55,549 bases of DNA from Chloroflexota bacterium. Lineage in GTDB: Bacteria > Chloroflexota > Chloroflexia > QHBQ01. Made by a program: the position numbers and the translations under genes. The number at the start of each line of letters is the position of its first letter. The stretch's first letter is position 1. This document shows, one piece after another, positions 388 through 55,549 of this stretch. Where the stretch lies: NCBI GenBank assembly GCA_043754535.1, contig JAYUUN010000022.1, forward strand, positions 1-55,549, in the 5' to 3' direction. The notes below the pieces were generated by a model. That model was not told the origin of the DNA. It worked only from the letters and a program-made list of their open reading frames with translations, and searched no databases.

Positions 388-2643
388 ATGGTACGACAGC
401 GCACCAGTGCCACGAGCGAAGTGGAGCAGGCGGGGCAGGCAGAGCAGAAGGGGCAGGTAGCAGAAGCAACGCAGCCGCGCACCCAGACCGGCGCAGACGC
501 GCCCACCAACGACTCGATCTACTTCAACCGTGAACTTAGCTGGTTGGAGTTTAACAGCCGCGTGCTGGACGAGTCGCTCGGCGACCGCCACCCGTTGTTG
601 GAGCGGATCAAGTTCCTGGCGATCTTCCACTCCAACCTCGACGAGTTCTTCATGGTGCGGATCAGCGGCATCCTGCGCCAGTACCAAGCGGGGGTGGCTG
701 ACCGCAGCCCCGACGGGATGACCCCCGCCGACGAACTGCTCACCCTGCGCAGCCGCACCCTTGCCGCCCTTGAGCAGGCGACCACGCACTGGCAGCAGAC
801 GCTCTGCCCAGCCCTTGCCCAGCACGGCATCCAGGTGTTGGAGTACCGCGACCTCAACCGCGAACAACGCCGCTACTTGAAAGACTATTTTGACCGCGAA
901 ATCTTCCCGGTCTGCACCCCACTCGCGGTTGACCCCGGCCATCCCTTCCCCCATATCTCCAACCTCAGCCTCAACCTGGCGGTTAACCTGGAAGACCCGG
1001 ATGGTGGACAACACTTCGCCCGCGTCAAGGTGCCGCTAGGGGTGATCAGCCGCTTGCTGGTGCTGCCATCCGGACTCTCCGAGCCTACCAATGACGGGCA
1101 GACTGGCCCGATTCGGCTGATCTGGCTTGAGCAAGTGTTGGCCGCCCACCTGTCTTCCCTCTTTCCCAGCATGGAGATCGTCGAGGCCCATCCCTTCCGC
1201 GTCACCCGCGATGCCGACGTGACGATCCAGGAGCTTGAGGCCGATGACCTGTTGGAGACGATTGAGGAGAGTATCAACCGCCGTCGCTTCGGCTCAGTTG
1301 TCGCCCTGTTCGTCAACCCGACCATGCCTGCTAACATCCGCTCGCTGCTGATCGAGAACTTGGAAGTGACCGCCGCTGAGTTGTACGTGGTGGAGGGTGC
1401 GCTCGGCCTCAGTGACTTGATGGAGGTTTACAAGCAGGATCGCCCTGCCCTCAAAGACCCTAGCCTCAACCCGCTGACCCCGCCAGACTTGCGCGGCGGC
1501 AACATCTTTGATGCAATCAAGAGCAAAGACATCCTGCTCCACCATCCCTTCGACTCGTTCAACCCCGTGGTGGAGTTCATCCGCCAGGCGGCCACCGACC
1601 CACAGGTGTTGGCGATCAAGCAGACCCTCTACCGGGTGGGCAGCAACTCACCCATCGTCGGCGCGTTGTTGGAGGCGGCGGAGTACGGCAAGCAGGTAGC
1701 GGTGCTAGTTGAGTTGAAGGCCCGCTTTGACGAGGAGAACAACATTGAGTGGGCGCGGGCGTTGGAGCAGGCTGGTGTACACGTCACCTACGGCCTAATT
1801 GGGCTGAAGACGCACTGCAAGGTGGCCCTCGTCGTTCGCAAGGAGCGTGATGGCATCCACCGCTACCTGCACATAGGTAGTGGCAACTACAACCCCTCCA
1901 CTTCGCGCCTCTACACCGACCTCGGCCTCTTTACCTGCAACGAACATTTTGGGGCTGATGCGTCTGACCTCTTTAACTTCCTGACTGGCTACTCCAAGCA
2001 GACTTACTACCGCAAGTTCCTGGTCGCCCCAGTCAACCTGCGCCAGGGTATCCGCGAACGCATCCTGCGCGAGATCGCCAGCCACCGCCAGCAAGGGGGT
2101 GGGCGATTGATCTTCAAGATGAACGCCCTGGTTGACCCAGCCCTGATCGAGGATTTGTACGCCGCCAGTGCCGCTGGGGTGCAGGTTGACCTGATCATTC
2201 GCGGTATCTGCTGCCTGCGGCCAGGGGTGGCGGGCCTGAGCGAGAACATACGGGTGGTTAGCATCGTCGGTCGCTTCCTCGAACACTCGCGCATCTACTA
2301 CTTCGCCAACGGGGGGGACAGCGAAGTGTACTTCGGTTCGGCAGACCTGATGCCACGTAACCTCGACTACCGGGTGGAGGTGTTGGTGCCGGTAGAGAAC
2401 GCCGGGCTGAAGGGGCAAATCCTGCATGACTTCCTCGAACTTTACCTGCGCGACAATGTGAGTGCGCGGCTGCTGCAACCGGACGGCAGCTACCTGCGCC
2501 GCCAACCAGCAGTGGGGGAGCCAGTGGTAGACTCGCAGTACGAACTGATCCGCCACCCCAGCGAAGCCGAGCGGGTCGCCGTCGAACTGGCCCGCCCCAA
2601 GTCGCTGCAAGACCGCTATGGCCGGGTGGACACAACCAACTGA
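388..2643 (+). CDS. ppk1: Polyphosphate kinase 1
   Basis: Motifs YFNRELSWLEFN, NLDEFFMVR, HPFPHISN, DILLHHPFDSF, IKQTLYR, VELKARFDEENNI, KTHCK, GSGNYN, SIVGRFLEHSRI, GSADLMPRNL. Confidence 0.97.
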   Translation: MVRQRTSATSEVEQAGQAEQKGQVAEATQPRTQTGADAPTNDSIYFNRELSWLEFNSRVLDESLGDRHPLLERIKFLAIFHSNLDEFFMVRISGILRQYQAGVADRSPDGMTPADELLTLRSRTLAALEQATTHWQQTLCPALAQHGIQVLEYRDLNREQRRYLKDYFDREIFPVCTPLAVDPGHPFPHISNLSLNLAVNLEDPDGGQHFARVKVPLGVISRLLVLPSGLSEPTNDGQTGPIRLIWLEQVLAAHLSSLFPSMEIVEAHPFRVTRDADVTIQELEADDLLETIEESINRRRFGSVVALFVNPTMPANIRSLLIENLEVTAAELYVVEGALGLSDLMEVYKQDRPALKDPSLNPLTPPDLRGGNIFDAIKSKDILLHHPFDSFNPVVEFIRQAATDPQVLAIKQTLYRVGSNSPIVGALLEAAEYGKQVAVLVELKARFDEENNIEWARALEQAGVHVTYGLIGLKTHCKVALVVRKERDGIHRYLHIGSGNYNPSTSRLYTDLGLFTCNEHFGADASDLFNFLTGYSKQTYYRKFLVAPVNLRQGIRERILREIASHRQQGGGRLIFKMNALVDPALIEDLYAASAAGVQVDLIIRGICCLRPGVAGLSENIRVVSIVGRFLEHSRIYYFANGGDSEVYFGSADLMPRNLDYRVEVLVPVENAGLKGQILHDFLELYLRDNVSARLLQPDGSYLRRQPAVGEPVVDSQYELIRHPSEAERVAVELARPKSLQDRYGRVDTTN

Positions 2644-2669
2644 GCATATACCAGGGGAGTCTAGTCTAG

Positions 2670-6356: not shown

Positions 6357-9300
6357 ATGAAGCAGCGACGGATCTATAGTCTGGGCAGCACTGTGCTGTT
6401 GCTCACCATGCTCAGTGGTATCATATTTAACTTCAGTCCAGTAGCGGCTAGCCCTACTGTTGGCAATAGTGTTGCTGGCAAGCAGGCCGCCCCCTGGCAG
6501 CCTTCGGTACGAGCCGCCAACCGCATCGTTGGCAGTGGTGTTGGTTTTGCGCCGAACGCCAGCAGCGGCAATATCCTGGCCGACAACAACTGGTGGGGCT
6601 GCAATGCTGGCCCGAACGCGCCCGGCTGCGACACCGCTACCGCCGTCGCGCCTTCGGTGCTGACCGCTACCCGTTGGCTGACCCTCAGCCTCAATCTGCC
6701 CTCCTACCTGCCAGTCGGCAGCAACACGGTCGTCGCTGGCAACCTGACAGTCAACAACCTGGGCCAGAACACCACTAGTGCTGGCAACGTGCCGAACGGT
6801 ACCCCCATGCTGTTCACCACCACTGTTGGCAGCATCTTGCCCGCCAATACCACCACCAGCGGTGGCAAGGGCTATAGCACCTACAACCCCGGTGCTGCCC
6901 CAATCGGTACGGTAGTGACGATCTGCGCCAAGGTGGACAACCAGACTACCTGCAACAATGCAGTGGTGGGCGGCCCCCCTGCGACTACTTATGCTGACGA
7001 TGACTGGGCAGGCCTTGCAGCAGGGGTTGACCCCGACGGGGCGGGGCCAGCGATAGCCATTGGCTACGACGCTTTCATCAGCCCGCAAATTGCCGTTAAC
7101 GTCGTGACTAGCAGCGGTCGCACCATCATCTACAGTGGCGTTTACAACGAGCAGGTGTTGATCTCCAAGCCACTGACCTTTAGTGGCGTGATCAGCGCAA
7201 CCGGGGCAACCAGCGGTAGCGCACCCAACCTGCGCCTGCCCAGCCCTGGCATCCCCTACAATGTCAACGGCACCGACTTGTACAGCACAGTGACAGTCAC
7301 TGGCACTGGCACCACGGTGACGATCACCGGCTTCCTGATCAACGCCATCTCCACTTGTGGCAACCTCAACCAGGGTGTCGCTTTGTTCGGCAACGCCCAG
7401 GCCACGATCAGCGGCAACCAGATCGCTAGCGTGCGCAACAACCCCCTGGATGGCTGCCAGCAGGGGGTTGGCATCCGTGTTGGTTCGGCAGCCCTAAGCC
7501 AAGCCGCCAACGCTACTATCAGTGGCAACACCTTCAGCGACATCCAGAAGAACGCCTTTGCGATTGACGGCCCTGGCAGCAGTGCCGATATCATTGGCAA
7601 CGTGCTGACTGGAACCGGTACCACCCCGCTGATCGCGCAGAATGGGGTGCAGATTTCGCGGGGCGCAACAGGTCGCGTCCTCAGCAATACGATCAGCGGC
7701 TATGCCTACAACGGCCCCAGCTTCCCGGCGGTGGGTGCTACCTCAATCATCATCTACAATGCCGACCAGAACACCCCTGTGGTGGTCAATGGCAACACGG
7801 TCACTGGCGCGCAGCTAGGCATCTTTGGTACCCGCGACGACGGTCTGTTCTCTAGCGTTTTCACTCGCCGCAACATCCTCTATGGTCGGCAGCAGAGCCA
7901 AGACACCGGTGTGTACTTCGACTCGACCCAGATCGGCTCTAGCGTCTATGACAGCGACATCTACCACATGGACGACGGTATCCACCTGGAACCACAGGTG
8001 GTAGCGATCACTGGTACGCTGATCCACCAGAACAACCGCGGTATCTTCCTCTACGAAGGCAGTTCGAGCGGCAACACTATCATCTTCAACCGCATCGTCA
8101 GCAATACCAATCGTGGCATCGAGTTTGGCCCGCTTACGTTGCCCCAGGCCAAGCAGAGTCGCCAACTTCGCCCGCAGCCTTTGTTCGACGACGGCAAGGC
8201 TGCCCGCCACCCAGCTACGATCAGGCGCGCCCCACTACCCAACGGTGGCCCTGGCGGTGGCGAAGATTACCCCAACAACTGGTGGGGCTGCAACGCTGGC
8301 CCGAACCAGCCCGGCTGCGACAGCTTCGTTACCAGCGATAGCACCTTCACTGTCACGAACTGGCTGACTCTCGGCCTTGCTACTACGCCGCTCATCTTGC
8401 CAGTAAACAGCACTGCTAATCTGACAGGCACCTTGCGCTTCAACTCAACCGGGGCGAACACCTTCCCGCTGGGCTACCTGCGCAACAATACCCCAATGCT
8501 CTTTACCGCCACTGTCGGTAGCCTCAATCCTGTCAATACTGGCACCAACCAGGCTCAGGGCTACAGCCTCTACACGGCTCCTGCCGCCCCCGGCCCAGCC
8601 CAGGTCTGCGTGCGGGTAGATAACCAAAGCGTCTGCAACAACCTGACGATCCAGGGCTTGCCCACCAGCACTGCGACTAGCACTGCCAGCCCCACTCCAA
8701 CCGCCAGCCCGACGGCAACCGCCAGCCCGACCGCTAGCAGCACGCCGACTGGCACGATCAGCACGGTTGTGATCCGCCCCTCCACCGAAGCAAGCCTCGG
8801 CTGGGCTACCTTCGACCAGAACACCGCCACCCACGCTTACGTCAACGGCCCTGCTCCCGCGCCATTTGGGGTCGGCAGCTTCCAGATGCAGACGGGTGGT
8901 GGCACTGGCGGCACGAATGGTGGCAAGAACTGGGTTGGTACCAACAACTTCACTGGTACCCTGCTCAGCAACATCACCACGATGAGCTATCGCACCTATG
9001 TGCAGCAGACTAGCAGTCCTAATATCGCCCCGGTGATTGAGATGAAGGTTGACACCGACACTAACGGCACGCGGGATGCTACCCTGGTCTTTGAGCCAGT
9101 CTACTCGGCTGGGTCGCAGGGGCCAATCGTGCCAGGGGTTTGGCAGACCTGGAACGCCCGTGCCGGTCTGTGGCGGGTGGTAGTCAGCAGCCCGAACACC
9201 CAGGTTACCTGCCCTGGTGGCAACTTCCTGCCCAACACCTACTTCACCTACAGTAGCTTCACTACTGCCTGCCCGGCGGCAACCATGGTGCAGTGGTTCC

Positions 9301-13136: not shown

Positions 13137-13205
13137 CCCGCTAAGGACAACCTGGCTGCTGCTAATTGGTTGTTAATCCAAATGGGCTATCCAGCTTTTG
13201 CCAGA

Positions 13206-13216
13206 TGTGCTATAAT
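13206..13216 (+). promoter_or_regulatory. Extended -10 promoter (TGTGcTATAAT), probably giving a leaderless mRNA
   Basis: TATAAT ends 6 nt before ATG 13223; no SD. Confidence 0.65.
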
Positions 13217-13222
13217 CTGCTC

Positions 13223-14176
13223 ATGAGCGACCCAGCCCTTAGTGTAATTATGGTCAGCTACAACACTTGTGCAGTTTTGCGCCAGGCGTTGCGGAGCGTC
13301 TTTGCCAGCAGCACCTCCTTCCCCTTCGCGGTCTGGGTGGTGGACAATGCTTCCCAGGACGGTAGCGCAGAGATGGTGGCAAACGAGTTCCAGCCCCAAC
13401 ACGCCAATCTGCACCTGATCCGCAGCCCGCGCAATGGTGGCTTCTCCTACGGCAACAACCTCGCCCTCAGCGAGTTTAGTGCGGCAGGTCGTGCAACTGG
13501 TCAGCCAGGTGCGGTAGCAAACATCGTCAGCAAGTACGTGCTGCTGCTCAACCCTGATACGATCCTGCCGCCCGATGCGCTAGCCGCAATGGTCGCTTTC
13601 ATGGACGCACACCCCCAGGCTGGTATTGCTGGGCCGAAGATGGTGCGCCCCAACGGGCAGCTAGACCTGGCGTGCAGGCGTGGCTTCCCTACCCCGCTCA
13701 ACTCGATCTACAAGTTGGCTGGCCTCAGCAAGCTCTTTCCCCACTCGCGTCGCTTCGCCAGCTACAACATGACCTTTGCTGACCCTGACACCTTGACCGA
13801 GGTGGACGCGGTGATGGGCGCGTTTATGCTGCTACGGGCTGAAGCGATCAACCAGGTCGGGTTGATGGATGACAGCTTCTTCATGTATGGCGAGGACTTG
13901 GACTGGGCCTACCGCATCAAGCAGCACGGCTGGCAGGTCTACTACAATCCCGCCGTGCGGGTGATCCACTACAAAGGTGAGAGTACGCGGCGTAGTAGCT
14001 ATCGCATGATTATACAGTTCTACCGCAGTATGAGCATCTTCCACCACAAGCATTATGCCGGCACTACCTTCTTCCTGCTCAACTGGCTGATCGCCATCGG
14101 CATCTGGGGCAAGGCTGGCCTGGCACTGGTGCAGAACTTGCTCCGCCCCAGCAGCAGGAAGCGAGTAGCTTTATGA
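13223..14176 (+). CDS. GT2 family glycosyltransferase (WbbL-like)
   Basis: LSVIMVSYNT, VVDNASQDGS, NGGFSYGNN, LLLNPD, GAFMLLR, FFMYGEDLDW. Last codons are GCT TTA TGA (TTA 14171-14173). Confidence 0.92.
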   Translation: MSDPALSVIMVSYNTCAVLRQALRSVFASSTSFPFAVWVVDNASQDGSAEMVANEFQPQHANLHLIRSPRNGGFSYGNNLALSEFSAAGRATGQPGAVANIVSKYVLLLNPDTILPPDALAAMVAFMDAHPQAGIAGPKMVRPNGQLDLACRRGFPTPLNSIYKLAGLSKLFPHSRRFASYNMTFADPDTLTEVDAVMGAFMLLRAEAINQVGLMDDSFFMYGEDLDWAYRIKQHGWQVYYNPAVRVIHYKGESTRRSSYRMIIQFYRSMSIFHHKHYAGTTFFLLNWLIAIGIWGKAGLALVQNLLRPSSRKRVAL

Positions 14177-18378: not shown

Positions 18379-18798
18379 CTACTTGTAGTAGCACTCCCAC
18401 CAACTCTGGTGGCTCTGCTGCCAGGCGGCGGCAGTGGCGTAGATTTGGGCCTGCGCGTTGTAGATTGAGTAGTTGCGGTAGGGATTCCAGTTGCCCCCCC
18501 AGGTGGCCGGGCTGTACTGGTACAGGCCGATGTAGGGGCCGCTGGCATTGTATGCGTCAGACCGCGCACTGGACTCGCAGAGCAGCACCCGCCACATCTT
18601 GTCCTCCGACTCGCTGTAAGGGTACCGCTTGTGGGCATCAGCGATCCAGGTCCGATACTGGCTATGCTGGTCAGCTATCCCCGTAGGGCTGAAAGCCGGT
18701 AGGCTGTTGGTCGAGCCGTCTGGCCCGAAGTTGTTGGCATTACTGGCGATGATCAAGATGACAAAGGCTAGTAGGCCGATGATGATGAAGCGTTGCAT
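18379..18798 (-). CDS. Small secreted lysozyme-like (Rpf/SLT-type transglycosylase) protein
   Basis: N-terminal TM/signal; CESS motif followed by NASG..GLYQY..ATW and C-terminal W..C; AGGAGG RBS; TGcTATAAT on minus strand at about 18822-18830. Confidence 0.7.
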   Translation of the reverse strand: MQRFIIIGLLAFVILIIASNANNFGPDGSTNSLPAFSPTGIADQHSQYRTWIADAHKRYPYSESEDKMWRVLLCESSARSDAYNASGPYIGLYQYSPATWGGNWNPYRNYSIYNAQAQIYATAAAWQQSHQSWWECYYK

Positions 18799-18883
18799 TT
18801 GCGCTCCTCCTTTCGTCACCGATTATAGCACAAATGCAACAGATGCAACGTCACTATTGCGCCTAACCATTGGAGGAGCCAGT

Positions 18884-19636
18884 TTGCTGCAAGCAAAACG
18901 CATTCAGGCGATCATCTTCGACCTGGGCGACACCCTGATCCGCACCCCGATCAGCCAGTATGAAGACGACCACTTCTACGCTGAGACTGCCCGGCAGTTG
19001 CGCCTGGCCCGCCCAGATGTGGCCCTTGACGCAGAGCAACTGCGTCACCACCAGGGGTTGGTTGGTCAAATGATCGCCGACTCCTACTACGAGGAGCAAC
19101 CATCAGCCCGCCTGGAGTACGACGCGGCAACCACGATGGCTCTGGCGATGCGCCAGGTCGCCCCACAGTACGCTGATGATGCGGCCTTGCAGCGCACGAT
19201 CTACGATATTGGCCGTGGGTTGATCTACAGCCCGGCGGTGGTCAGCCCCTACACCTATGCGGTGCTGGACGATCTGCGTGGACGCGGCTATCGTCTCGGT
19301 CTCTGCTCCAACTACTTCGGCTACGCTGACGTGGTGCTGGATAGTACGCGCGAGATCGGCATTGCCGGGCGGCTAGACGCTTGCGTGTTCTCTTGCGAAG
19401 TGGGCTGGCGCAAGCCGAACCCCCGCATCTACACTGCGATCTGCGCAAAGCTGGCAGTCGCGCCCACCAACTGCCTGTTCGTCGGCGACCGCCTGCTAGA
19501 GGATATACATAGCCCACAAGAGTTGGGGATGCAAACCGTCCTCAGTCATGAGTACCGCCAGGAGCAGCCAGTGGCTAGCACGCCCCCGCCCGATCTGCTG
19601 ATCGAGCGGCTAGATCAACTGTTGGCTGCTTTGTTA
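18884..19636 (+). CDS. HAD-superfamily hydrolase (standard code would extend to 19753)
   Basis: GGAGG RBS plus TTG; FDLGDTL, CSN, KPNP.IY, FVGDR..EDI. The domain ends ERLDQLLAAL, followed by in-frame TTA at 19634. Confidence 0.85.
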
Positions 19637-19644: not shown

Positions 19645-20460
19645 TCAATATTCTACCAACACGCCCACGCTGAGTTGCTGGGCGAGGGCAAGGAGCTTAC
19701 GGATGCGGGCCAGCCCATTGAGTGTCACCGAGTCGCGCACGGCATCGCGCTGATCGAGGGTGGTCAGCGGGTCCTTGATCAGGCGCACCGCCTCCTCTAG
19801 CCAGCTAGTGACAAAGTGGTAGAAGGAGGTGACCATGTCTGCGCTGATCTCGCGCAGAAAGAGCAGTTGCCAAATCTGGTCGGCCCCGATGTCGTAGTAG
19901 CGACCAGTGCGTGGATAGGGCAGGCGGAAGGGCTGCTCTGGCGCGTCGAAGTAGACCCCACGCAGGGTAGTCTGACCGAGGAAGCGCGTCCCCTTCGGCG
20001 CACCGCTGCCCCGCTTGCCGCGCAGGGTAAAGATGCTGAGGCCGGTGATCTTGCGTTGCTCCTCCAGGATCAGGTTGAGGAAGCTACGAGCTGGTTCGAG
20101 GTCGTCGGTTGCCATTGCTAGGCGGTGAACGAGTAGGCTGAGGACAAGTTCGCTGGTTTCGTCAATTGGGTATTCGAGGCTAGCCCAGCAGCCGACTGCC
20201 ACCGGGTCGCGGTCGAGGCGGGCGACGAAGTTGGCGGGGCAGGTTAGACAGCTAGGCTGGGCTGCGCGCAAGGGAGCTAGGGCGCGATCCATATCCGCCG
20301 GGTTGATGCCGTACTCCTTGCTCGCCTCTTTGACCGAGAGCGGGCCGGTACGACGGGCAGCCCGTACCCGACGTTCCATCTTGCTAAGTTGGTGTAGCCA
20401 GGTGGTGCCGTACTGCTGTTTTGGCTGGCAACGGTAGTCGAGCATGAAGTCTGCGGCCAT
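19645..20460 (-). CDS. Hypothetical protein with Cys motifs (DYRCQPKQ, CLTCPAN, GCW..LEYPI), possibly metal-binding
   Basis: 271-aa ORF; GGAGG RBS; codon usage like neighbours. Confidence 0.7.
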   Translation of the reverse strand: MAADFMLDYRCQPKQQYGTTWLHQLSKMERRVRAARRTGPLSVKEASKEYGINPADMDRALAPLRAAQPSCLTCPANFVARLDRDPVAVGCWASLEYPIDETSELVLSLLVHRLAMATDDLEPARSFLNLILEEQRKITGLSIFTLRGKRGSGAPKGTRFLGQTTLRGVYFDAPEQPFRLPYPRTGRYYDIGADQIWQLLFLREISADMVTSFYHFVTSWLEEAVRLIKDPLTTLDQRDAVRDSVTLNGLARIRKLLALAQQLSVGVLVEY

Positions 20461-21212: not shown

Positions 21213-21246
21213 AGGCATATGCGGCGCAAGCCCACTCAACTTGCCC

Positions 21247-24660: not shown

Positions 24661-26046
24661 TAACGCTGACTGGAACTCACCATCGATCTCGTCCTCCACC
24701 TTCTTCTCGTTCACTTTGGTCAGCAGCAAGATGCCAATCAGGTAGTAGATCGCGGCACCGACCATGATCGCGCTGTAGGTGGCGACTGGGTTGAGGTTGG
24801 GGTTGAGGATGCTGGCGATCACCGTGCCGAAAACCGGGGAGAGTGCCTGCGCCCCCGCCGTCGCCAGGTTGCTGACCCCCATGTACTTGCCTGCCTGACT
24901 GCGCGGGATCAGGTCTGTGACCATCGCCCAATCCACTGCGGTGAACATCCCGAAAAAGAGGCCAGTGAAGGTGCTGAGGATGGTTAGTAGGGTGAAGTCA
25001 CGGAAGAAGACCAGGGCGAGCGCGCCAAGAATGCCGAACACCCCACTGAGGGCGATCAGCGGCTTGCGCCCATAGCGGTCGGTGAGGAAGCCGCTGATGA
25101 TCGCTGAGATAAAGCTGAAGCTGATCACGATCACCTGGATGATCGTGTAGCCTGCATTCGCGTCGGGCAAGATCAGGCCAAAGAAGTTGTAGTTCTTCAG
25201 CTTGATTACATCTTGGATGTAGTAGAGGGCGTAGGTGGTGATCGTGGTGAAGCCCATCAGGCTGAACAGGCGGGCGATCAGTAGCCAGACGAAATCGGGA
25301 TACCGTTTGGCGTTGATGCTGACGATAGAGGTTAGCCGCTGGCCGAAGCTGATCCGTGGGCTGGGCGGTAGCTGGTCTGTTGCTTGCTCGCGCAGCAGCA
25401 GGATGTTGACCAGCCCACCGAGGGCAACGATGATGATCACCCCCAGGCTCGCCCCGGCCAGGTCGTTGCGGCTGAGGCTGATACCCATGTAGATAGCAGA
25501 GCCGATCTGCCCGAACATCTGCGCCGCCCCTAGTGCGCCGCTGGCCTTGCCACGATCCTCCGCTAGCACGCGGTCGGGCAGCAGGCCGTGATAGGGGCCA
25601 AAGGCGACGTTGGAGAACAACTGGGTGAGGCCATAGAAGAAAAGAAGCCACCACCAGCCAAGTAGGACAGAGAGGGTCAGTCCTAGCACGCTGATCAGGG
25701 TCAAGGTCGTGCCAATGAAGACGAAGGGAACGCGCTTGCCCACCTTTGACCGCCAGCCGTCGCTGATCGCCCCGAACATGGGCTGGGCGAAGGCGGCGAT
25801 GATCAGTCCAGGGAAGGTGATCCAGCCGAGCGCAGTGAGCTTGTTGTCGGCAACGGTCAGGCCGAACAGCCGTAGCCCTTCGGCGGGCAGCAGCCGCTCG
25901 TTGAGGTTTGGTATGATGAACTGGCCTATGGCACCCCAAAGTACGGTGAAGGCAAACTGGTAGGCGCAGAACCAGAGGTAGTCCAGCCCGCGCATCTTGT
26001 GGGCGGCTGGGTTGACCTTCGCCATTGGTTGGTTAGCAGTGGTCAC
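24661..26046 (-). CDS. MFS transporter (12 TM, sugar-type); standard code would extend to 24592
   Basis: QPMFGAISDGWRSKVGKRVPF, LPD.V..EDRGKASG, GFLTDRYGRK, DWAM..D. Acidic tail ends DGEFQSA, then TTA. Confidence 0.88.
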
Positions 26047-27213: not shown

Positions 27214-27813
27214 TTACACCCCCACGGTCAGCCCTGCCACCGCCGCCCTGCCTCCCTCGGTGATAAACTCGCCGCGTACCCGCTCGGTCAGTACCGCCGC
27301 AAAGTCGTATTCCAGCAGTCGTGCGCTGAGGCTGGCGACCTCGTCCTCCGCCAAGGGGTATTCTACGGTAGTGATCAACTTGCCCTCGTCGCTGGCTAGG
27401 TAGTCACTGGCGAAGATCACGCTGTCTGCGCCGCTATAGTGCAGGTAGTGGCGGTGCTTGCCCGGCTGCTCGATCACGAGCAGGTCGCTAGTCGCGTCGG
27501 CCCGACGCAGCACCTTGCAGCCAAATGCTTCCTGGTAGGCAGCCAGGCCGTGATAGGCTCTCTCAGTCAGGAACAGCAAATCTACCCCACCTAGCGCGTC
27601 CAAAGCCTCAAACAGGTCGTCGCTCAAGTCAGGCAGCCCCACCAGCACCTTGCTGCTAGCAACAACGAAGTAAGCGAGTCGCTGCCAGCCTCCATCCTCA
27701 TCCTCACCCTGACCATGCTGGTAGATGGCGTAGACGTGCGGCGGTATTAGCAGGCTCATGTTCGCTGCCCGCAGCAGGAACTGCGTCTCGCGGGAGTTCT
27801 CCTCGCCCAGCAT
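27214..27813 (-). CDS. Hypothetical protein, degenerate metallo-beta-lactamase-like fold
   Basis: AAGGAG RBS; LGGVDLLFLT, FGCKV, PG.H, VIFASD resemble an MBL fold lacking the HxHxDH motif. Confidence 0.55.
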   Translation of the reverse strand: MLGEENSRETQFLLRAANMSLLIPPHVYAIYQHGQGEDEDGGWQRLAYFVVASSKVLVGLPDLSDDLFEALDALGGVDLLFLTERAYHGLAAYQEAFGCKVLRRADATSDLLVIEQPGKHRHYLHYSGADSVIFASDYLASDEGKLITTVEYPLAEDEVASLSARLLEYDFAAVLTERVRGEFITEGGRAAVAGLTVGV

Positions 27814-29381
27814 AACGCGCTCTCCTTCTCTGCTTCGCTGCCCCGCCGCAGCAGGAAGATGGCTGGCAGGATCGCTACCACTGCCACGATGGCCGCCGCC
27901 CTAAACTCCTCGGTGTAAATCTGGACAAAGGCGGCAACCACCGCCTGCCCGTTCAGGCCCGCGTTCAGGTTGGCGAGACGTACCAGGCCCCAGGCTTGCA
28001 GCAGCGGCAGGGCAAGGGTCATCCCTGTCAGGCGGGCGAAGGTGACGGTGGCGGCGGCGATGCCTGCCCGGTCGCGGGGCATGGAGTTGATCGCGCTAGC
28101 TGAAGTGGGGGCGATCAGCAGGCCAAAGCCCAGGCCGATCAAGCCCAGGTGTAGCCAGGTCGCCACCGGGTCGTAGACGCTGGCCGCACCCCAACCAGAG
28201 AGTAGCCAGAAGCCCGCCGCCACTGCCAGCAAGCCCGCGACCGCCACCACAGGGTAGGTTAGCCGTTCGCTGAACAGGCCACCGAGGATTGCGCCGAGGG
28301 GAATGAAGGCGGTCATGTGCAGCAGCAACAAGCCCCCCTCCACCGCTCCGTCATGCCCAGCCACGCCAGTGAACACCACATTGCCGAGCAGGGCGAGGTT
28401 CAGTTGGGCAACGATCAGGGCCGCTCCGATCAGCAGATTGACCAGGTTTGCGCTGACGAAACCACGAATGGTGAAGTCGCGCAGTGGCAACAGCGGGTCG
28501 TGACCTACCCGCTCGACGACCAGAAAGAGAACGAGGGCCAGGATCGCGCCGCCCGCAAACCAGGGGAACAGTTCGGTGGCGAACAGGCGGATCGGCGGTA
28601 GCTCTGTCTTCTGCGAGAGGGCGAGGGTAAGCAGCAACAGCGTGCCGCCGAGCAGCAGCCCTCCCAACCAGTCTACCTTTGCCTGCGACTTGACGTTGGC
28701 TGGTACCAGGCGTAGGAGCAGGAAGATAGCACCCAGGCTGAGGGGGATATTGAGCAGGAATATCCAGTGCCAGTCCTTGATCGCTAGCCCCAGGCCGCCA
28801 ACCCCGAAGTTTAGCTGGCTACCCCTGAGCAGGTTGACGACCGCCACCCCATAGAAGGGGCCAAGCACGCCGCCCGCCTCGGCTACCGCCCCGATCATCC
28901 CCAGGGCGAAACTGCGCCGTCGGGGAGCAAACAAGTCGCGCACCATTGCCATGCCAATGGGCAGCACCGCCCCGCCGCCAACCGCCTGCACCACGCGGAA
29001 GCCTAGCAGCCAGCCAAGACCAGTGTCCACCCCAAACACGTCGCTGCCAGACAGCGCACAGCCAAGCGAGCCGATGATAAAGAGGATCATAGAGGCGACA
29101 TAGGTGCGGCGGTGGCCGAATATGTCGGCGATGCGCCCTAGCAGCGGCAGGGCCAGGGTGTAACCCAGCAGGTAGGCGGTGACGATCCAGCCCGCCTGAT
29201 CAAGGTTGTTGATCGGGATACCCAGGTCGTTGATCACCTTCGGCAGCACGGTGACGATCACCGTCTGGTCGAGGGCGGCCAGGAAGATGCCGACGCAAAT
29301 CACCGCCAGGGTGAGGATCGGTCGCCGATTTCCGCTGACCGCCTCTACCCCTGCCTCCCGCTCCAAAGCCGCGCTGGACAA
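27813..29381 (-). CDS. MFS drug:H+ antiporter (DHA2/EmrB-like, 14 TM); standard code would extend to 27756
   Basis: FLAALDQTVI, WIVTAYLL, GRIADIFGHRR, RVVQAVGGG, WIFLLNIP. Confidence 0.9.
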
Positions 29382-30251: not shown

Positions 30252-30273
30252 CCCTGCCCCTCTAAAGGGTCGC

Positions 30274-32244: not shown

Positions 32245-32308
32245 GAAGAACGTCCCCTTTCTTGAATACAGGCTGCAAAGCTGCTGGCCTGACTTACCTC
32301 ATAACCTA

Positions 32309-32701: not shown

Positions 32702-32731
32702 TTGACGACTAACCGCCCTGGCGCGTATAAT
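32702..32731 (+). promoter_or_regulatory. sigma70 promoter for the Trm112-GT4-GT-C operon
   Basis: TTGACG-18 bp-TATAAT. Confidence 0.65.
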
Positions 32732-32763
32732 GGCACGGAAACCTGAACAAGGAGAAAGTGTGC

Positions 32764-32979: not shown

Positions 32980-32991
32980 CGAACGTAGCTG

Positions 32992-42484: not shown

Positions 42485-43075
42485 ATGGCAATCCTTGATA
42501 TTGTACAGGACGGCGACCTGGTGCTGGCGAAGAAATGCACGCGGGTGACCACCTTTGATGCAAAGCTGCGTAAGCTGGTGGATGATATGTTTGAGACGAT
42601 GTACTACGCAAACGGCGTGGGCCTGGCCGCCAACCAGATCGGCCTGCCGTTGCGCCTGATCGTGATCGACGTGCCGCCCGATGCAGAGGACAGGCAGCGT
42701 GGCTTCAAGATTGCGATGGCGAACCCAGAGATCGTCAGGCTGGAAGGGGAGGAGACTACCCCCGAAGGCTGCCTCAGCGTCAAGGGCTGGGTGGGCGATG
42801 TGCAGCGGGGCTACAGGGTAGAGGTCAAGGGGTTGGCCCTGATGCCTAATGGTCAGTGGAAGGAGCAGAAGGTCAAGGCCCATGGCTTTCTCGCCCGCGC
42901 GTTCCAGCACGAGTGCGATCACCTCAATGGGGTTCTCTACACCAGCCGTGTAACCGACATTACCACGCTGCACAAAATAGAGCGCAGCGAAGAAGAAGTT
43001 GAGCAACTACGCCAACAACTCAGCGAACTACGCGAGAGCGCAAATGCGGGTGCGGCAAAGGACACAGGTGCGTTA
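42485..43075 (+). CDS. def: Peptide deformylase (ends at TTA; fused to the next gene under the standard code)
   Basis: GVGLAANQIG, EGCLS, QHECDHLNG. Confidence 0.93.
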
Positions 43076-43885
43076 ATGGCAAGTCTACGTGTGATGAGTT
43101 TTAACATCCGGGGGGCGAACTACCCTGACGGCGTGAACGCCTGGCCTGCCCGTGCTGCCCTCAATGTCGCTACTATCCAGCAGTATGGCCCTGACCTGAT
43201 CGGTTTGCAAGAGGTGCAGGCCGACAACCTGACCTACTATCGCCAGCACCTACCAGCCTACCAGTTCGCCCCTGGCCCACAGTACAACAACACCGAACCC
43301 TACGACTATGTGGCCCTCGCCTGGCGACCAGAGCGGCTGCAACTGCTGCACGCGGGCGGCTTTTGGCTCAGTCCCCAGCCCGCGCACTACTCCGGGCCAG
43401 CCTGGGGGGCAGTGCAGGTGCGCTCGGCAAACTGGGCGCGCTTTGAACTGGTGCAGGGCGGTCAGCAGTTCGTCCACCTCAACACTCACCTCGACTACAT
43501 CAGCGAGCAGGCCCAGGTGGAGGGAACGAAGCTGATCCTCAGCCAACTGGCGGGGGTGCGCGGCGGCCTACCCGCCCTCGTCACTGGCGACTTCAACTGC
43601 AACCCCGACAGCGAACCGCACGCTCTATTCCTTGCTGCTGGCTACCAGGACAGCTACATCACGCTTGGCAATCGTGACGACTTGGCTGACCCCACCAGCT
43701 ATACAACCCATTACTTTCTCGGCGACGGCTACCGCCCGCAGGACTTCCATGGCTCTGGGCGTATAGACTGGCTGCTAACCAGGGGCGCACTCACGCCCAC
43801 CAGCTACGCCGTGGCCCGTGATGCCCAGCCGCCAGCCTACCCCAGCGACCACTATCCTGTGCTGGTAGAGTTCAGTCTCGGCTGA
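43076..43885 (+). CDS. Endonuclease/exonuclease/phosphatase (EEP) family protein
   Basis: ATG directly after TTA; LRVMSFNIR, DLIGLQEV, NTHLD, TGDFN, RIDW, SDHYPV. Confidence 0.9.
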   Translation: MASLRVMSFNIRGANYPDGVNAWPARAALNVATIQQYGPDLIGLQEVQADNLTYYRQHLPAYQFAPGPQYNNTEPYDYVALAWRPERLQLLHAGGFWLSPQPAHYSGPAWGAVQVRSANWARFELVQGGQQFVHLNTHLDYISEQAQVEGTKLILSQLAGVRGGLPALVTGDFNCNPDSEPHALFLAAGYQDSYITLGNRDDLADPTSYTTHYFLGDGYRPQDFHGSGRIDWLLTRGALTPTSYAVARDAQPPAYPSDHYPVLVEFSLG

Positions 43886-53438: not shown

Positions 53439-53585
53439 CAACTCACCTCCTATGCTCATTATAAACCATAGTGCAAACACTCTGCCACCCCCATGCGCAG
53501 TTTGGGCCGCAGCTTGTTCGCAAGCCTGCGATTGTGGTATGATCGGGGCAAAGCAAAGTTGCACACCACTCGATGAGGAGTATGA

Positions 53586-55549
53586 ATGACCACCCTGACT
53601 CGCAATGCCTGGCAGCCGCTTGCTGCCCCCACCGCCAGCCCCGACCTCGGCTGGTGGCTGACGATCCTCGAACGCGCCCTTGTTTCCAGGGCGATGGACG
53701 ACCTGGAACTCACCCCTGGCTACAAGCCCCAGCCGGAGAACCCTGCGGCAGGCAAGTTGCGCTTCCAGTTCTCGGCGAAGGGGCATGAGGTGCCGCAACT
53801 GATCGCCGCCAGTCTGCTCGACCACCCGCATGACGCAGCGACCGTCTACTATCGGTCACGACCCTTCATGCTCGGCATCGGCCTTAGCCCACAGACGGCC
53901 TTCGCCAGCAATATGCACAAGTTGAGCGGGGTCAGTGGCGGTCGCGACATCGGCGTGGTCTTCAACCACAAGCAGCCCGGTGGGGTCAGCGTACTACCTG
54001 CTAGCGGTGACGTGGGGGCGCAATACACCCCGGCAGCGGGCTGGGCGCAGGCGATCCGCTACCGCAGCGAGGAGCTTGGCGAGGCGGAGTGGAGCAGGGC
54101 CGTCGCTCTCTGTTTCGGCGGTGACGGCTCGACTGCCACCAACGGCTTCTGGGCTGCCCTCAACATAGTCACCACCCTGCAACTGCCAATGGTGATGATC
54201 CTTGAGGATAATGGCTACGCGCTGACTGTGCCAGCCCGCTACCAGACTTCGGGCGGTCAGTTGTTGGCTAACCTGAGCAACTTCCAGGGCGTAGGGCTGC
54301 ACTCGGTGGACGGAGCCGACGTGGTGAAGCTGCACGCCGCCCTGGCCCAGGCGGTGGGGGCCGCCCGCAGCAGCCATCAGCCACAGATCGTCCATGTTAC
54401 CGTTCCCCGCTTGACCGGTCATAGCTGGCAGGACAACCAGCGTTACCGCCCAGAGACGGAGTTGACCGCCGACAGCCAGCGTGACCCCCTGGTGGCCCTG
54501 CTATCCTATGTACAGCAGGCGGGGGCAAGCGAACAGGATATTGCCGCGATGCAGCAGCGCGCCCACGACCTGGTGCGTGTTGCTGCCGAGCAAGCCTGGG
54601 CCAGCCCCGACCCACAGGCCAGCGATGCACTGACCCATATGTTTGCCCCTAGCTCGGCTCTGGCGCAGAGCGAAGCAGCGGCCATCGGTGAGCGCATCAC
54701 AATGCAGAAGGCAATCGGCATCTGCCTGGCGGATGAGATGAGCCGTGACCGCAGCATCCTGGTCTTCGGCGAGGACGTGGGCAAGAGCGGCGGCGTGCAT
54801 CGAGTCACTGACGGGCTGCAAACCCGCTTCGGCGAAGGGCGGGTGTTCGACACCAGCCTGAGCGAGGAGGGTATCATGGGCCGCAGCATTGGCCTTACGT
54901 TGGCGGGCCTGCGCCCAGTGCCAGAGCTACAGTTCCGCAAGTATGCCGATCCCGCCCATGAGCAAATCACCGACCTCGGTAGCTTGCGCTGGCGCACGCA
55001 CGGCAAGTTTGGCGGTCCAGTCGTCCTCCGCATTCCTGTTGGCTACCAGAAGATGGGTGGCGACCCCTGGCACGCTGTCACCGCCGAAGCAGTCTTCGCC
55101 CACCTACCGGGCTGGCAGATCGCCTACCCCGCCAACGCCGCCGACGCTGCTGGTCTGCTACGCACGGCCTTGCGCGGCGACAACCCAGTCATCTTTCTCG
55201 AACATCGCTTCCTCTACGATGGGGTAGAGGCGCGCCGTCCCTACCCTGGTGCCGACTACTGCCTCCCCTTCGGCCAGGCGAAACTGGTGCGCGAAGGGGA
55301 TGCGGCGGTGGTCGTGGCCTGGGGCGACAGCCTCCACCGCAGCTTGCGGGCTGCCGAACAGGTGGCAGCTAGCAGTGGTAGGCAGGTGGCAGTCCTCGAC
55401 CTCCGCACTATAGTTCCCTGGGATCGGGCTGCTGTGCTGGACGCTGTAAGCACCCGCGGTCGTCTGCTCGTCGTCCACGAGGACACGCACACGACTGGCA
55501 TGGGCGGCCAGATTGCCGCTGAGGTTGCCCGCCACGCCTTCAGCTACCT
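53586..55549 (+). CDS. 2-oxoacid dehydrogenase E1 alpha+beta fusion (3' end outside window)
   Basis: Not in the ORF track (no stop in window). GAGGAG RBS; FQFSAKGHE, YYRSRP, FGGDGSTATNGFW..DNGYA (ThDP motif), FGEDVGKSGGV, FDTSLSEEGI, PELQF, PVIFLEH, DLR. Confidence 0.92.
   Translation, partial: MTTLTRNAWQPLAAPTASPDLGWWLTILERALVSRAMDDLELTPGYKPQPENPAAGKLRFQFSAKGHEVPQLIAASLLDHPHDAATVYYRSRPFMLGIGLSPQTAFASNMHKLSGVSGGRDIGVVFNHKQPGGVSVLPASGDVGAQYTPAAGWAQAIRYRSEELGEAEWSRAVALCFGGDGSTATNGFWAALNIVTTLQLPMVMILEDNGYALTVPARYQTSGGQLLANLSNFQGVGLHSVDGADVVKLHAALAQAVGAARSSHQPQIVHVTVPRLTGHSWQDNQRYRPETELTADSQRDPLVALLSYVQQAGASEQDIAAMQQRAHDLVRVAAEQAWASPDPQASDALTHMFAPSSALAQSEAAAIGERITMQKAIGICLADEMSRDRSILVFGEDVGKSGGVHRVTDGLQTRFGEGRVFDTSLSEEGIMGRSIGLTLAGLRPVPELQFRKYADPAHEQITDLGSLRWRTHGKFGGPVVLRIPVGYQKMGGDPWHAVTAEAVFAHLPGWQIAYPANAADAAGLLRTALRGDNPVIFLEHRFLYDGVEARRPYPGADYCLPFGQAKLVREGDAAVVVAWGDSLHRSLRAAEQVAASSGRQVAVLDLRTIVPWDRAAVLDAVSTRGRLLVVHEDTHTTGMGGQIAAEVARHAFSY

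Follow-up and report, generated by a model that had tools for sequence, protein, structure and literature searches.

NCBI translation table 23, in which UUA is a stop codon, is that of labyrinthulean (Thraustochytrium) mitochondria. Termination at UUA with a modified RF2-type factor is described for labyrinthulean mitochondria and peDinoflagellate plastids, and the organellar UUA-reading factors carry Ala, Gly, or Cys in place of Ser204 of the SPF motif (PMC12574857). The same source describes both UUA and UUG as stops in the mitochondria of Marsupiomonadales and Pseudoscourfieldia, with mtRF1a implicated (PMC12574857). Among bacteria, unassigned codons are described for Micrococcus luteus (AGA and AUA) and Mycoplasma capricolum (CGG) (PMC4695839), and the rare TTA codon of Streptomyces is described as being read, at few sites, by the bldA tRNA-Leu(UAA) (PMC10732093). 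In the literature that we found, UUA as a stop is described for mitochondria and plastids only; here, genome comparisons make it likely that in one family of Chloroflexia, UUA is no longer leucine and serves as a fourth stop beside UAA, UAG, and UGA, which would place this reassignment in bacterial genomes.

The genome analyzed here (G000) is a 3.87-Mb draft from an uncultured Chloroflexia bacterium. It was compared with its congener G001 (93% nucleotide identity) and three genomes from a sister genus (G002, G003, and G004), giving five genomes for the family, and with G006 and G009 from two neighboring families. The genomes are metagenome assembled with completeness of 83 to 89%, and all inference is from DNA.

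In-frame TTA codons in the window

In the window (the whole 55,549-nucleotide stretch of DNA that was analyzed), TTA triplets occur in any frame 234 times on the plus strand and 197 times on the minus strand. Only 8 of these are in frame and none lies within a protein body, and the pattern therefore exceeds chance. A preliminary description had reported no in-frame TTA within protein bodies over about 41 coding sequences (~17,000 codons), and we obtained the same result over 38 open reading frames (ORFs; 16,862 codons) from a simple in-house caller with longest-ORF starts, which omitted the pxpA ORF (20277-21239) because of a 184-bp overlap. The six in-frame TTAs listed there (14171+, 19634+, 20387-, 24663-, 27815-, and 43073+) are all real; two more, at 18740(+) and 19697(+), were missing from the list and also lie outside protein bodies.

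All three junctions that had been claimed, in which a new gene starts on or directly behind the TTA (two TTATG, at 14171/14173 and 27815/27813, and one TTA-ATG, at 43073/43076), were found. The GT2 glycosyltransferase gene (13166-14173, plus strand) closes with a TTA (14171..14173) that has a TGA directly 3′ and whose final base is the A of the next ATG (gene at 14173-15696); the orthologs in G002 and G004 end in RKRVT and a stop, and in the G003 ortholog, a TTA occupies this position and 13 more codons precede a canonical stop. A second major facilitator superfamily (MFS) transporter gene (27813-29381, minus strand, 522 amino acids [aa]) ends in a TTA (27813..27815) that overlaps by one base the ATG of the gene at 27214-27813, so that, as proposed, the 58-bp overlap at 27756-27813 shrinks to 1 bp if TTA is a stop. 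Its G002 ortholog ends at about the same place; that in G004 (alignment from query residue 7) carries an in-frame TTA near that point (residue 514 of its frame), with the frame open for 217 more codons. The peptide deformylase gene def (42485-43075, plus strand) ends in a TTA (43073..43075), and the start codon, ATG, of the next gene, an EEP-family member at 43076-43885, comes directly 3′. Read through, the two form a fusion with Pfam matches to Pep_deformylase (residues 4 to 159) and Exo_endo_phos (204 to 456); with TTA as a stop, they separate into proteins of 196 and 269 aa, as the preliminary description had it. At exactly the same position, def has TTA in G001, TAG in G002, and TAA in G004, and in G003 the stop comes one residue later.

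Under table 23, the gene for the HAD hydrolase spans 18749-19636 (plus strand) and ends in a TTA at 19634..19636, and the G002 and G004 orthologs stop 2 residues beyond the aligned position. Treating this TTA as a stop removes the 109-bp convergent overlap (19645-19753) with the ORF at 19645-20460(-), as claimed. Of the two additional in-frame TTAs, 19697(+) lies 3′ of this gene end, and 18740..18742(+) lies in the 5′ extension of the same ORF, before the likely start, since residue 92 is the first within a Pfam domain, ortholog alignments begin at residues 53 to 92, and the table 23 ORF starts at 18749. On the minus strand, the other MFS transporter gene (24661-26046, 461 aa; TTA at 24661..24663) has three sister-genus orthologs that end 2 to 4 residues from the TTA and lack a counterpart of the 23-residue read-through tail, with the caveat that the Pfam MFS_1 match extends to residue 471, 9 residues beyond the TTA. 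The match is approximate rather than exact for pxpA (LamB/YcsF family; 20385-21239, minus strand; TTA at 20385..20387), whose tails are variable: the protein has 284 aa to the TTA versus 320 aa on read-through, and its orthologs end at approximately query residues 262 to 275, as estimated from alignment ends plus remaining codons. Here too, the claimed shortening of the overlap, from 184 to 76 bp, was reproduced.

Position of TTA and coding signal across genomes

TTA is the rarest codon in G000 (500 of 1,130,697 codons), with CTA counted 12,738 times and TTG 16,857 times (14.9 per 1,000). Under the standard code, the scarcity of TTA might simply reflect GC pressure and selection on codons, with the six sites in the window being chance or weakly selected C-terminal tails. 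The genome has a GC content of 61% and a GC3 of about 76%, so that A-ending codons are disfavored, and a rare TTA with a dedicated tRNA is well described in Streptomyces (PMC10732093). We nevertheless regard this explanation as almost negligible. The TTA/TTG ratio is 0.03 versus 0.22 for CTA/CTG, the cognate tRNA is absent, and G006, a standard-code genome (GC 71%) in which TTA is as rare as in G000 (0.60 per 1,000 codons), has a flat distribution of TTA across ORF deciles and keeps the coding signal downstream of TTA. In G000, by contrast, TTA is where the coding signature, the pattern of substitutions, and the homologs all end.

By ORF decile, 35% of the TTAs in G000 fall in the first decile, where ORF starts are overextended, and 40% in the last, with about 10% in deciles 3 to 8; the control codons CTA, TTG, ATA, TCA, TGT, and AAA are flat with about 10% in the last decile (AGA, 15%). 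The 40 codons leading up to a C-terminal TTA (181 genes) have a GC of.666/.470/.746 at codon positions 1/2/3, and the sequence beyond it has.606/.587/.592. Of six control codons, five (CTA, ATA, TCA, AAA, and TGT) keep the coding GC pattern downstream, and AGA shows a weaker one (.664 at position 3). At 17 terminal TTA sites compared with G001, substitutions by codon position number 31/22/101 upstream (1,972 nucleotides [nt], 0 gap columns) versus 58/42/34 downstream (1,290 nt, 8 gap columns); at these TTAs themselves, G001 has three sense codons (GTA, CTA, and TTG) and TAA just once. One exception, at codon 63 of 157 in C103 (minus strand), is a TTA that lies in a conserved coding context and corresponds to TTG in G001.

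The TTA pattern is common to all five family genomes examined and was not seen in the two neighboring families. G001 and G002 have U-shaped distributions like that of G000 (the 229 TTAs of G002 fall into deciles as 76, 20, 6, 7, 4, 2, 3, 0, 11, and 100), and the distribution in G009 is flat at 2.75 TTAs per 1,000 codons. Alignments to G000 proteins span 2 of 153 TTA sites for G002, neither opposite Leu, versus 70 of 130 for G009 (36 opposite Leu) and 15 of 36 for G006 (6 opposite Leu). Canonical stops of homologs fall no more than 5 codons from the TTA of G000 in 17 of 29 cases for G002, 10 of 13 for G006, and 8 of 16 for G009; they come equally near the canonical stop of the G000 ORF itself in just 2 of 29, 3 of 13, and 2 of 16, respectively. 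The six window sites are in line with this.

When G000 was re-called with TTA as a stop, 277 of 3,184 genes (~9%, about one in eleven) ended in TTA, and overlaps of at least 20 nt between neighbors fell from 322 to 219. Genome-wide, 15 called downstream genes start on the last base of a TTA. In G000, only 22 interior TTAs are flanked by coding sequence both upstream and downstream and stand over 40 codons away from the nearest ORF end, and 16 of them have a Shine-Dalgarno (SD)-like motif and an in-frame start within 25 codons. The six without this combination are C2, C3, C18, C128, C124, and C10; at C128, the alignment of the G002 homolog stops 8 residues ahead of the TTA.

Because coding constraint and homologs stop at TTA, new genes start behind it, and conserved bodies are nearly empty of it, TTA very probably marks the true end of coding regions. 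The checks proposed in the preliminary description gave absence of TTA from conserved bodies and its concentration at homolog C termini, TAA or TAG at orthologous positions in sister genomes, and fewer overlaps and fusions upon re-calling. Its interpretation of TTA as a fourth stop is supported, in that each proposed check that could be run matched its prediction, and we infer the reading by a release factor.

tRNA-Leu(UAA), rescue, and release factors

As had been predicted, ARAGORN and a tRNA-Leu covariance model found no tRNA-Leu(UAA) in G000 or G001; all five searched genomes of the two neighboring families have one. The sister genus keeps a single, divergent UAA-anticodon tRNA despite the same TTA pattern, and the syntenic locus in G000 contains no tRNA. 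This tRNA is 93 to 94% identical among the three genomes, with a conserved C31.A39 mismatch and a compensatory change at pair 29-41, and from its sequence looks maintained. The suggested loss of tRNA-Leu(UAA) thus holds for the genus of G000 but not for the sister genus, where the TTA pattern coexists with the tRNA; the pattern therefore does not depend on the loss, and in that genus UUA could be ambiguous.

If UUA were instead unassigned, ribosomes would stall without a tRNA and be freed by tmRNA or another rescue factor. The missing tRNA in the genus of G000 and the tmRNA gene in G000 fit this, and unassigned codons are known in bacteria (PMC4695839), but the codons so described vanish from genes and do not close them. 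The genes that end in TTA here make up ~9% of the total, peptide deformylase among them. In trans-translation, tmRNA tagging sends products to degradation, which would doom the products of all these genes. A one-base overlap of stop and start is typical of efficient termination-reinitiation, and the 15 such TTATG overlaps fit rescue poorly, as do the sister genus with its UAA-anticodon tRNA and the lack of a third, ArfB-type RF-1-domain protein in G000 searches. Stalling with rescue is accordingly improbable, and we think that termination at UUA is probably achieved by a release factor.

Termination might also be indirect, with a +1 slip at a hungry UUA placing an overlapping UAG or UAA before an ordinary release factor; for AGA/AGG in human mitochondria, a -1 shift was proposed. 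The base after the terminal TTAs of G000 (n = 210) is G in 115, T in 52, C in 26, and A in 17, so that 132 of them (63%) would permit a shift onto UAG or UAA, and C, the base preferred after TAG (539 of 1,133), comes next in 61 of the 115 TTAG cases. However, the other 78 sites are TTAT or TTAC, of which only 3 have a +1-frame stop within 3 codons (median, 17.5 codons); the purine share after TTA is near those after TAA (54%) and TGA (59%); TTATG accounts for two of the six sites in the window; and T is the commonest base after TTA in the sister genus (T 35, G 30, A 14, C 12). Such slippage is therefore very improbable.

For direct release at UUA, RF2 is the candidate that we favor, if only by a narrow margin over doubt, by correlation. 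Searches with the PCRF and RF-1 domains found one RF1 and one RF2 in G000 and no third RF-family gene, and all 14 relatives have exactly two PCRF-domain matches each. An extra paralog, one outcome envisaged in the preliminary description, thus did not appear, but changes in the codon-reading region did: in all 8 family sequences, RF2 has Met for Leu (HR-L-VR to HR-M-VR; Leu in 189 of 189 other RF2s) and, five residues downstream in the codon-reading loop, SPY for SPF (F in 183 of 189 others). SPY also occurs in other lineages, in 6 of the 189 RF2s and, together with Gln, in one further representative; a DNA pattern for RMVRISPYD had no match in 400 other Chloroflexota genomes. A His-to-Gln change was rejected as diagnostic, being common in RF2s (30 of 97 parsed).

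RF1 or an unrecognized factor or RNA might read UUA instead. The RF2 link is one of correlation, the Ser that the organellar UUA readers have replaced in SPF is still present in family RF2, the genomes are incomplete, and mtRF1a is implicated for UUR stops in some green-algal mitochondria (PMC12574857). We consider another reader unlikely, since the PxT loop of RF1 is unchanged (9 family sequences versus 113 others) with four conservative family-specific changes elsewhere, no third factor was found in G000 and each of the 14 relatives has just the two PCRF-domain matches, and the base after TTA resembles that after TGA, which only RF2 reads, in favoring G and then T (G>T>A>C for TGA), and not that after TAG, the RF1-only stop, where C is preferred.

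Were RF2 the reader, its HR-M-VR and SPY changes may broaden recognition at the second position from A or G to include U, paralleling what has been proposed for the modified RF2-type factors of labyrinthulean mitochondria and peDinoflagellate plastids. The cognate tRNA has been lost in the genus of G000, and compositional pressure together with tRNA loss, emptying genes of UUA, is a plausible first step.

Comparison with known systems

The Chloroflexia family resembles the UUA-stop organelles in changing the same codon from Leu to stop with canonical stops retained, in lacking UUA in gene bodies and having it at homologous termini, in having no cognate tRNA (here, in the genus of G000), and in combining a changed RF2-type codon-binding region with a normal-looking RF1 region. 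It differs in that a free-living bacterium is involved, with some 3,000 genes in close to 4 Mb instead of a few dozen genes, in that one genus still has a UAA-anticodon tRNA, and in its RF2, which keeps the Ser and changes the Phe of SPF to Tyr and an upstream Leu to Met. With Marsupiomonadales and Pseudoscourfieldia mitochondria, it shares a leucine-to-stop change, the lack of a gene for the cognate tRNA, and an altered release factor; there, both UUR codons are changed and mtRF1a is implicated, whereas here TTG is a common sense codon and the RF1 loop is unchanged.

As in Micrococcus luteus and Mycoplasma capricolum, a sense codon has been removed from a bacterial chromosome by what appear to be compositional pressure and tRNA loss, but in those species the codons vanish, and here the codon seems to be reused as a terminator in 277 of 3,184 genes. 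In Streptomyces, TTA is a sense codon within regulatory genes and is read by bldA. G000 is likewise GC rich with very few TTAs, and the sister genus has a single unusual UAA-anticodon tRNA; unlike in Streptomyces, TTA almost never lies within conserved protein sequence, and the genus of G000 has no such tRNA.

TTA codons at gene ends

The draft genome to which the window belongs (G000, with the window as its contig C22) comprises 3,872,131 bp in 132 contigs, with a GC content of 61.4% and a completeness of 88.9%. The relatives compared with it were a congener (G001), three genomes from the other genus examined in its family, the sister genus (G002 to G004), and genomes from two neighboring families of the same order, among which G006 and G009 were the main controls and G007, G012, and G015 supplied extra outgroup rows, no claim resting on them alone. 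The genomes compared are incomplete metagenome bins (the G000 and G001 drafts are 87 to 89% complete), and all gene calls are our own, made throughout with a crude ORF caller that uses codon log-odds and longest-ORF starts.

TTA was the rarest codon in the 2,980 ORFs called in G000, with 500 occurrences in 1,130,697 codons (0.44 per 1000), compared with 1,587 for AGA, the next rarest, 12,738 for CTA, and 16,857 for TTG. The preliminary description of the window had proposed that TTA (UUA) acts as a fourth stop codon and predicted that TTA would be missing from protein interiors genome-wide and would peak at the C termini of homologs. The position tabulation bore this out, as TTA was scarce in mid-ORF and spiked at ORF ends, with homolog stops nearby. 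The distribution was U-shaped, with 35% of TTAs in the first decile, 40% in the last, and about 10% in deciles 3 to 8. The first-decile excess arises because ORFs begin at the first possible start codon, where rare codons gather; the last-decile share of control codons was 9.5 to 11.7% (CTA, TTG, ATA, TCA, TGT, and AAA) or 14.9% (AGA).

In 181 G000 genes whose last 60 codons include a TTA, GC content at codon positions 1, 2, and 3 was.666,.470, and.746 upstream of this terminal TTA versus.606,.587, and.592 downstream. The coding GC pattern was retained downstream of five of six control codons and weakened to.664 at position 3 for AGA. Substitutions between G000 and G001, which share 93% nucleotide identity over 349 kb covering 17 terminal TTA sites, changed likewise: upstream, they numbered 31, 22, and 101 by codon position, with no gaps in 1,972 nt, and downstream 58, 42, and 34, the 1,290 nt containing 8 gap columns. 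By both measures, the sequence after TTA appears to be free of coding constraint. As a separate observation, AGA (1.4 per 1000 codons) combines the second-lowest frequency with a mild last-decile excess and a reduced downstream GC3, perhaps only a sign of weak constraint at C termini, and tRNA-Arg(UCU) is present.

When the 500 TTAs were classified by context, 194 had coding sequence before but none after, 103 had none before but coding sequence after (5' extensions), 115 had coding sequence on neither side, and 88 had it on both. Of the last group, 22 were separated from both ORF ends by more than 40 codons, and 16 of these 22 were gene junctions, with a Shine-Dalgarno (SD)-like motif and, within 25 codons, a start in the same frame, including the starts of what we take, from their N-terminal sequences, to be biotin-carboxylase-like and RNase PH-like genes. 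The remaining six, on contigs C2, C3, C18, C128, C124, and C10, had no such SD-plus-start combination within 25 codons and count against the stop reading; at the C128 site, the alignment of the G002 homolog ends 8 residues before the TTA. Another of the 16 junctions is on the minus strand of contig C1, where an ORF of 1,573 amino acids (reverse complement, 29369-34091) has an in-frame TTA as codon 783 of 1574, at the junction of its GT-C and GH35 parts, followed by GGAGG and an ATG 7 codons on. If TTA is a stop, this apparent fusion is two ordinary adjacent genes.

Re-calling genes with TTA as a stop had been expected to lower the number of overlaps, and it did so: neighbor overlaps of at least 20 nt fell from 322 to 219 and those of at least 50 nt from 225 to 151. 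In the new set, 277 of 3,184 genes ended in TTA, 1,216 in TAG, 961 in TGA, and 730 in TAA. A called downstream gene began on the last base of the TTA in 15 cases, like the TTATG junctions in the window. Gene callers using table 11 would misannotate about 9% of genes here through false C-terminal tails, overlaps, and fusions, of which the GT-C/GH35 protein is an example.

Homologous ends and distribution among relatives

In the window, where 38 ORFs with 16,862 codons were called, the six in-frame TTAs reported previously were all found with the ORF caller and the pxpA ORF, namely, in the genes for GT2 (14171, plus strand), HAD (19634, plus), PxpA (20387, minus), two MFS proteins (24663 and 27815, both minus), and Def (43073, plus). 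The junctions also read as claimed, with TTATG at 14171 and 27815 and TTA-ATG at 43073. Two further in-frame TTAs lie at 18740, upstream of the probable HAD start, and at 19697, downstream of 19634. The two strands carry 234 and 197 TTA triplets, few of them in frame, and in-frame TTA is therefore strongly avoided.

Canonical stops at the orthologous positions in sister genomes, another expectation of the preliminary description, were present, in def exactly so. The read-through product of def (466 aa) contains Pfam Pep_deformylase (residues 4-159) and Exo_endo_phos (204-456), with the TTA as residue 197. This TTA is kept in G001; TAG in G002 and TAA in G004 occupy the identical position after '...GDTG[AV]', and the stop in G003 lies one residue beyond it. 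The GT2 proteins of G002 and G004 end in 'RKRVT*'; in G003, the corresponding codon is TTA, and 13 unrelated codons come after it. The HAD orthologs stop 2 residues past the G000 TTA, and the orthologs of the first MFS protein (24663) end within 2-4 residues of its TTA, although the Pfam MFS_1 stretch overruns this TTA by 9 residues, which counts against the stop reading. For the second MFS protein (27815), the G002 ortholog ends at about the same place as the G000 TTA, and in G004 an in-frame TTA lies close to that position, after which the frame is open for 217 more codons. We estimate that pxpA orthologs, whose tails vary, end at about residues 262-275; the G000 protein would have 284 aa if it ended at the TTA and 320 aa with read-through.

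Genome-wide, a canonical stop of the homolog lay within 5 codons of the G000 TTA in 17 of 29 cases for G002, 10 of 13 for G006, and 8 of 16 for G009. The next canonical stop of G000 itself had a homolog stop this close in only 2 of 29, 3 of 13, and 2 of 16 cases, respectively; this comparison is conservative because many matches are paralogs. These counts, together with def, GT2, HAD, and both MFS genes, indicate that UUA stands where homologs have a termination codon. In G001, the 17 terminal TTAs of G000 corresponded to 13 TTAs, 1 TAA, and 3 sense codons (GTA, CTA, and TTG), the sense codons being evidence against the stop reading; canonical stops also changed to sense codons at a low rate between the two genomes (about 8/290). 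One TTA, codon 63 of 157 in a minus-strand ORF of contig C103 (reverse complement, 6427-6898), lies in conserved coding sequence that resembles a membrane protein; its counterpart in G001 is TTG, and it counts against the stop reading. It may represent a recent nonsense-like change, a polymorphism, or a rare sense reading.

The pattern was shared within the family. TTA frequency was 0.36 per 1000 codons in 400 kb of G001 and 0.66 in 400 kb of G002, both with U-shaped placement and with GC3 dropping across the terminal TTA (.764 to.598 and.747 to.576, respectively). In a larger G002 sample (1.16 Mb, 895 ORFs, and 330,073 codons), 229 TTAs, including 91 terminal sites, were distributed over the deciles as 76, 20, 6, 7, 4, 2, 3, 0, 11, and 100. 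Placement was flat in G009 (400 kb, 2.75 per 1000 codons, GC3.67 to.64) and in G006 (339 kb, GC 71%, 0.60 per 1000 codons, GC3.83 to.77). In a further comparison, proteins with an in-frame TTA from G002, G009, and G006 were aligned to those of G000, and a TTA was counted as spanned if the alignment covered at least 15 aa on both sides. Only 2 of 153 G002 sites were spanned, to Ala and Ile in gap-rich stretches, and 76 lay 3' of the aligned region, 49 of them within 10 residues. In G009, 70 of 130 sites were spanned, 36 to Leu, and 13 lay 3' of the aligned region; the corresponding numbers for G006 were 15 of 36, 6, and 3.

A standard code in which TTA is simply rare is excluded by the G006 control: TTA is about as rare there as in the family and still behaves as a sense codon. 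The change in TTA is thus a property of the family and not of GC content. Judged from these alignments and the junction counts, UUA is absent from conserved sense positions of proteins, codon 63 of the C103 ORF and the six interior TTAs excepted. CTA is unusually frequent in the family (10-11 per 1000 codons, versus 6.8 in G009 and 2.0 in G006), which fits a replacement of former TTA leucine codons through a single T-to-C change.

Leucine tRNAs and release factors

ARAGORN found 46 tRNAs in G000, with CAA, CAG, GAG, and UAG as the only Leu anticodons. A covariance model built from these four Leu tRNAs was searched against ten genomes, and the matches were typed with ARAGORN. Neither method recovered a UAA-anticodon Leu tRNA in the G000 or G001 drafts at their 87-89% completeness; the G001 set is judged incomplete because tRNA-Leu(UAG) is missing there too. 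tRNA-Leu(UAA) is present in each of the outgroup genomes G005, G006, G008, G009, and G011. The loss of tRNA-Leu(UAA) put forward in the preliminary description therefore appears to hold for the two members of this genus but not for the sister genus, which keeps a divergent UAA-anticodon Leu tRNA in all three genomes (G002, locus L143, c1502-1585; G003, L148, 1379-1461; and G004, L149, c1497-1580), a point against the stop reading.

This sister-genus tRNA scores 61-69 bits, versus 83-102 for the other Leu tRNAs of the group labeled f1, has the acceptor stem GGGGGTA rather than GCCGGAG, and carries a conserved C31.A39 mismatch. It is fast-evolving; a compensatory change distinguishes G002 from G003 at pair 29-41, and no other Leu tRNA of the order shares more than 66% identity with it. 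The gene downstream is presumably cysS, and the syntenic spacer in G000 (contig C57, ~33517-33617) contains no tRNA. It may be a remade tRNA-Leu(UAG), or this genus's tRNA-Leu(UAG) may be its ortholog with a changed anticodon, but identities are 62-66% to everything, and tblastx between the loci gave no match. In a genus without TTA inside conserved proteins, its role could be that of a read-through tRNA or a relic, among other possibilities. Leaky read-through would be expected to favor backup stops, but no in-frame excess followed the 91 terminal TTAs of G002: the next stop came within 3 codons in 19 of 91 cases, versus 155 of 799 after canonical stops (Fisher P = 0.78), and comparisons at 8 and 10 codons gave P values of 0.82 and 1.0. 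A rare sense TTA of the Streptomyces bldA type does not describe G000 either, as no tRNA-Leu(UAA) was found in its genus and its TTAs lie at gene ends or outside genes.

The apparent lack of the tRNA might also mean that UUA is unassigned and that stalled ribosomes are rescued. This is unlikely, since about 9% of genes, def among them, would then have their products tagged for degradation, and the same TTA pattern is seen in the sister genus despite its UAA-anticodon tRNA.

Two other tRNA predictions touch on stop codons. A 93-nt ARAGORN tRNA-Pyl(CUA) (C31:4032-4124; L126, 133-225) had no Rfam tRNA match at an E value of ≤1 and is probably a false positive, TAG being the commonest stop (1,250/2,980). 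tRNA-Sec(UCA) genes occur in G000, G001, and G006 (contig C84 of G000, c51665-51759; also L080 and L027), so that in this order UGA has a second reading, as selenocysteine, in some genes.

The preliminary description had supposed that a release factor reads UUA. Searches with the PCRF and RF-1 domains found one RF1 and one RF2 in G000, no third RF-1-domain protein or other release factor paralog, and exactly two PCRF-domain matches in each of 14 relatives. RF2 is changed at the SPF loop: it reads 'RISPYDSQHRRQTSF' (SPY) in all five family genomes and 'R[LI]SPFD..RRHTSF' (SPF) in all eight correctly extracted outgroup genomes (RF2 of G013 and G014 and RF1 of G006, G008, G010, and G014 were left out as wrong ORFs). 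We compared 8 family RF2s with 189 others, drawn from the 120 best word-index matches and from a set of 1.84 billion proteins, of which the 150 best representatives were taken. Leu, present in 189/189 others, is Met in 'HR-M-VRISP' of the family, and Phe of SPF is Tyr in the family (Phe in 183 and Tyr in 6 of the 189 others). SPY also occurs in lineages outside the family, which counts against the proposed reading. A DNA pattern for RMVRISPYD had no matches in an even sample of the phylum comprising 400 other Chloroflexota genomes. The His-to-Gln change (RRHTSF to RRQTSF) was rejected as diagnostic, Gln being common (30/97 parsed representatives). RF1, compared as a control between 9 family members and 113 others, shows four family changes (V to I, V to I, L to I, and G to A), all conservative and outside the PxT loop, which is canonical.

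All three families retain CTT TGA C as the +1 frameshift site of prfB. The SD-like element upstream of this site is CAGGCC in the family, versus GGAGG, AGGAG, or GAGGTG in the neighboring families (5' regions L035, L037, L038, and L040 versus L031, L033, L036, L039, L041, and L042), an alteration that might change RF2 autoregulation.

The base 3' of terminal TTAs was G in 115 cases, T in 52, C in 26, and A in 17. This context shares the G-then-T preference of the RF2-only stop TGA (G 357, T 212, A 176, and C 160), unlike that of the RF1-only stop TAG (C in 539/1,133). With a purine after 63% of terminal TTAs, an ordinary release factor could act at these sites if the ribosome slipped +1 at UUA onto UAG or UAA. 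Slippage is possible there but cannot be general, because 78 of the 210 sites are TTAY and a +1-frame stop follows within 3 codons in only 3 of these 78. In the model for human mitochondrial AGA/AGG, the frameshift creates a canonical stop at every such site, whereas the TTAY sites of G000 lack a nearby shifted stop. Correlation and analogy make RF2 the best candidate reader of UUA.

Proposed course and comparison with known codes

In the course that we consider most likely, GC pressure would have thinned TTA, in keeping with the high CTA. RF2 would then have gained the Met and Tyr changes and started release at UUA, after which TAA-to-TTA changes at gene ends would have become tolerable and spread to about 9% of genes. 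The tRNA would have decayed in the sister genus and been lost in this one; we infer the order of this step and the RF2 change. A tentative reading, and one that we consider rather doubtful as a whole, is that this Chloroflexia family is the first free-living cellular lineage known with a sense-to-stop change and that two stages are preserved, the sister genus as an intermediate whose broadened RF2 (Met/Tyr) already terminates at UUA beside a surviving, weakened tRNA(UAA) with its C31.A39 mismatch, and this genus as the end state with no tRNA. A sense-to-stop change in a bacterial genome of 4 Mb and about 3,000 genes would imply that even a large proteome can clear out a codon and pass it on to a release factor. 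It would also mean that a natural variant of RF2 exists which may recognize U as the second base of the codon, and that two stages, one with the tRNA and one lacking it, are available for testing codon-capture and ambiguous-intermediate models. Engineered codes with four stops or compressed codon sets would gain a natural template.

Natural changes of the bacterial code, as far as known to us, go from stop to sense or swap amino acids. A literature search for a bacterial UUA stop, with subscription journals outside its scope, gave full-text matches on UUA or UUR stops for mitochondria and plastids only. In a 2015 review, sense-to-nonsense changes are placed in mitochondria and the bacterial cases are unassigned codons only (PMC4695839). 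Unassigned codons of the Micrococcus luteus or Mycoplasma capricolum type are absent from genes and have no role at gene ends, unlike TTA here, at which the coding signal ends in about 210 to 277 G000 genes. The closer comparison is with organelles, whose UUA stops (a code of the NCBI table 23 type) have been ascribed to RF2-type factors mutated at the SPF serine (PMC12574857); Ser205 of SPF is described as contacting the second stop-codon base (PMC5776981). In those organellar UUA readers Ser204 is substituted, whereas the family RF2 keeps the Ser and has SPY together with a Leu-to-Met change five residues upstream. Retention of the Ser lowers the likelihood of the same molecular solution as in organelles, not that of the same code.
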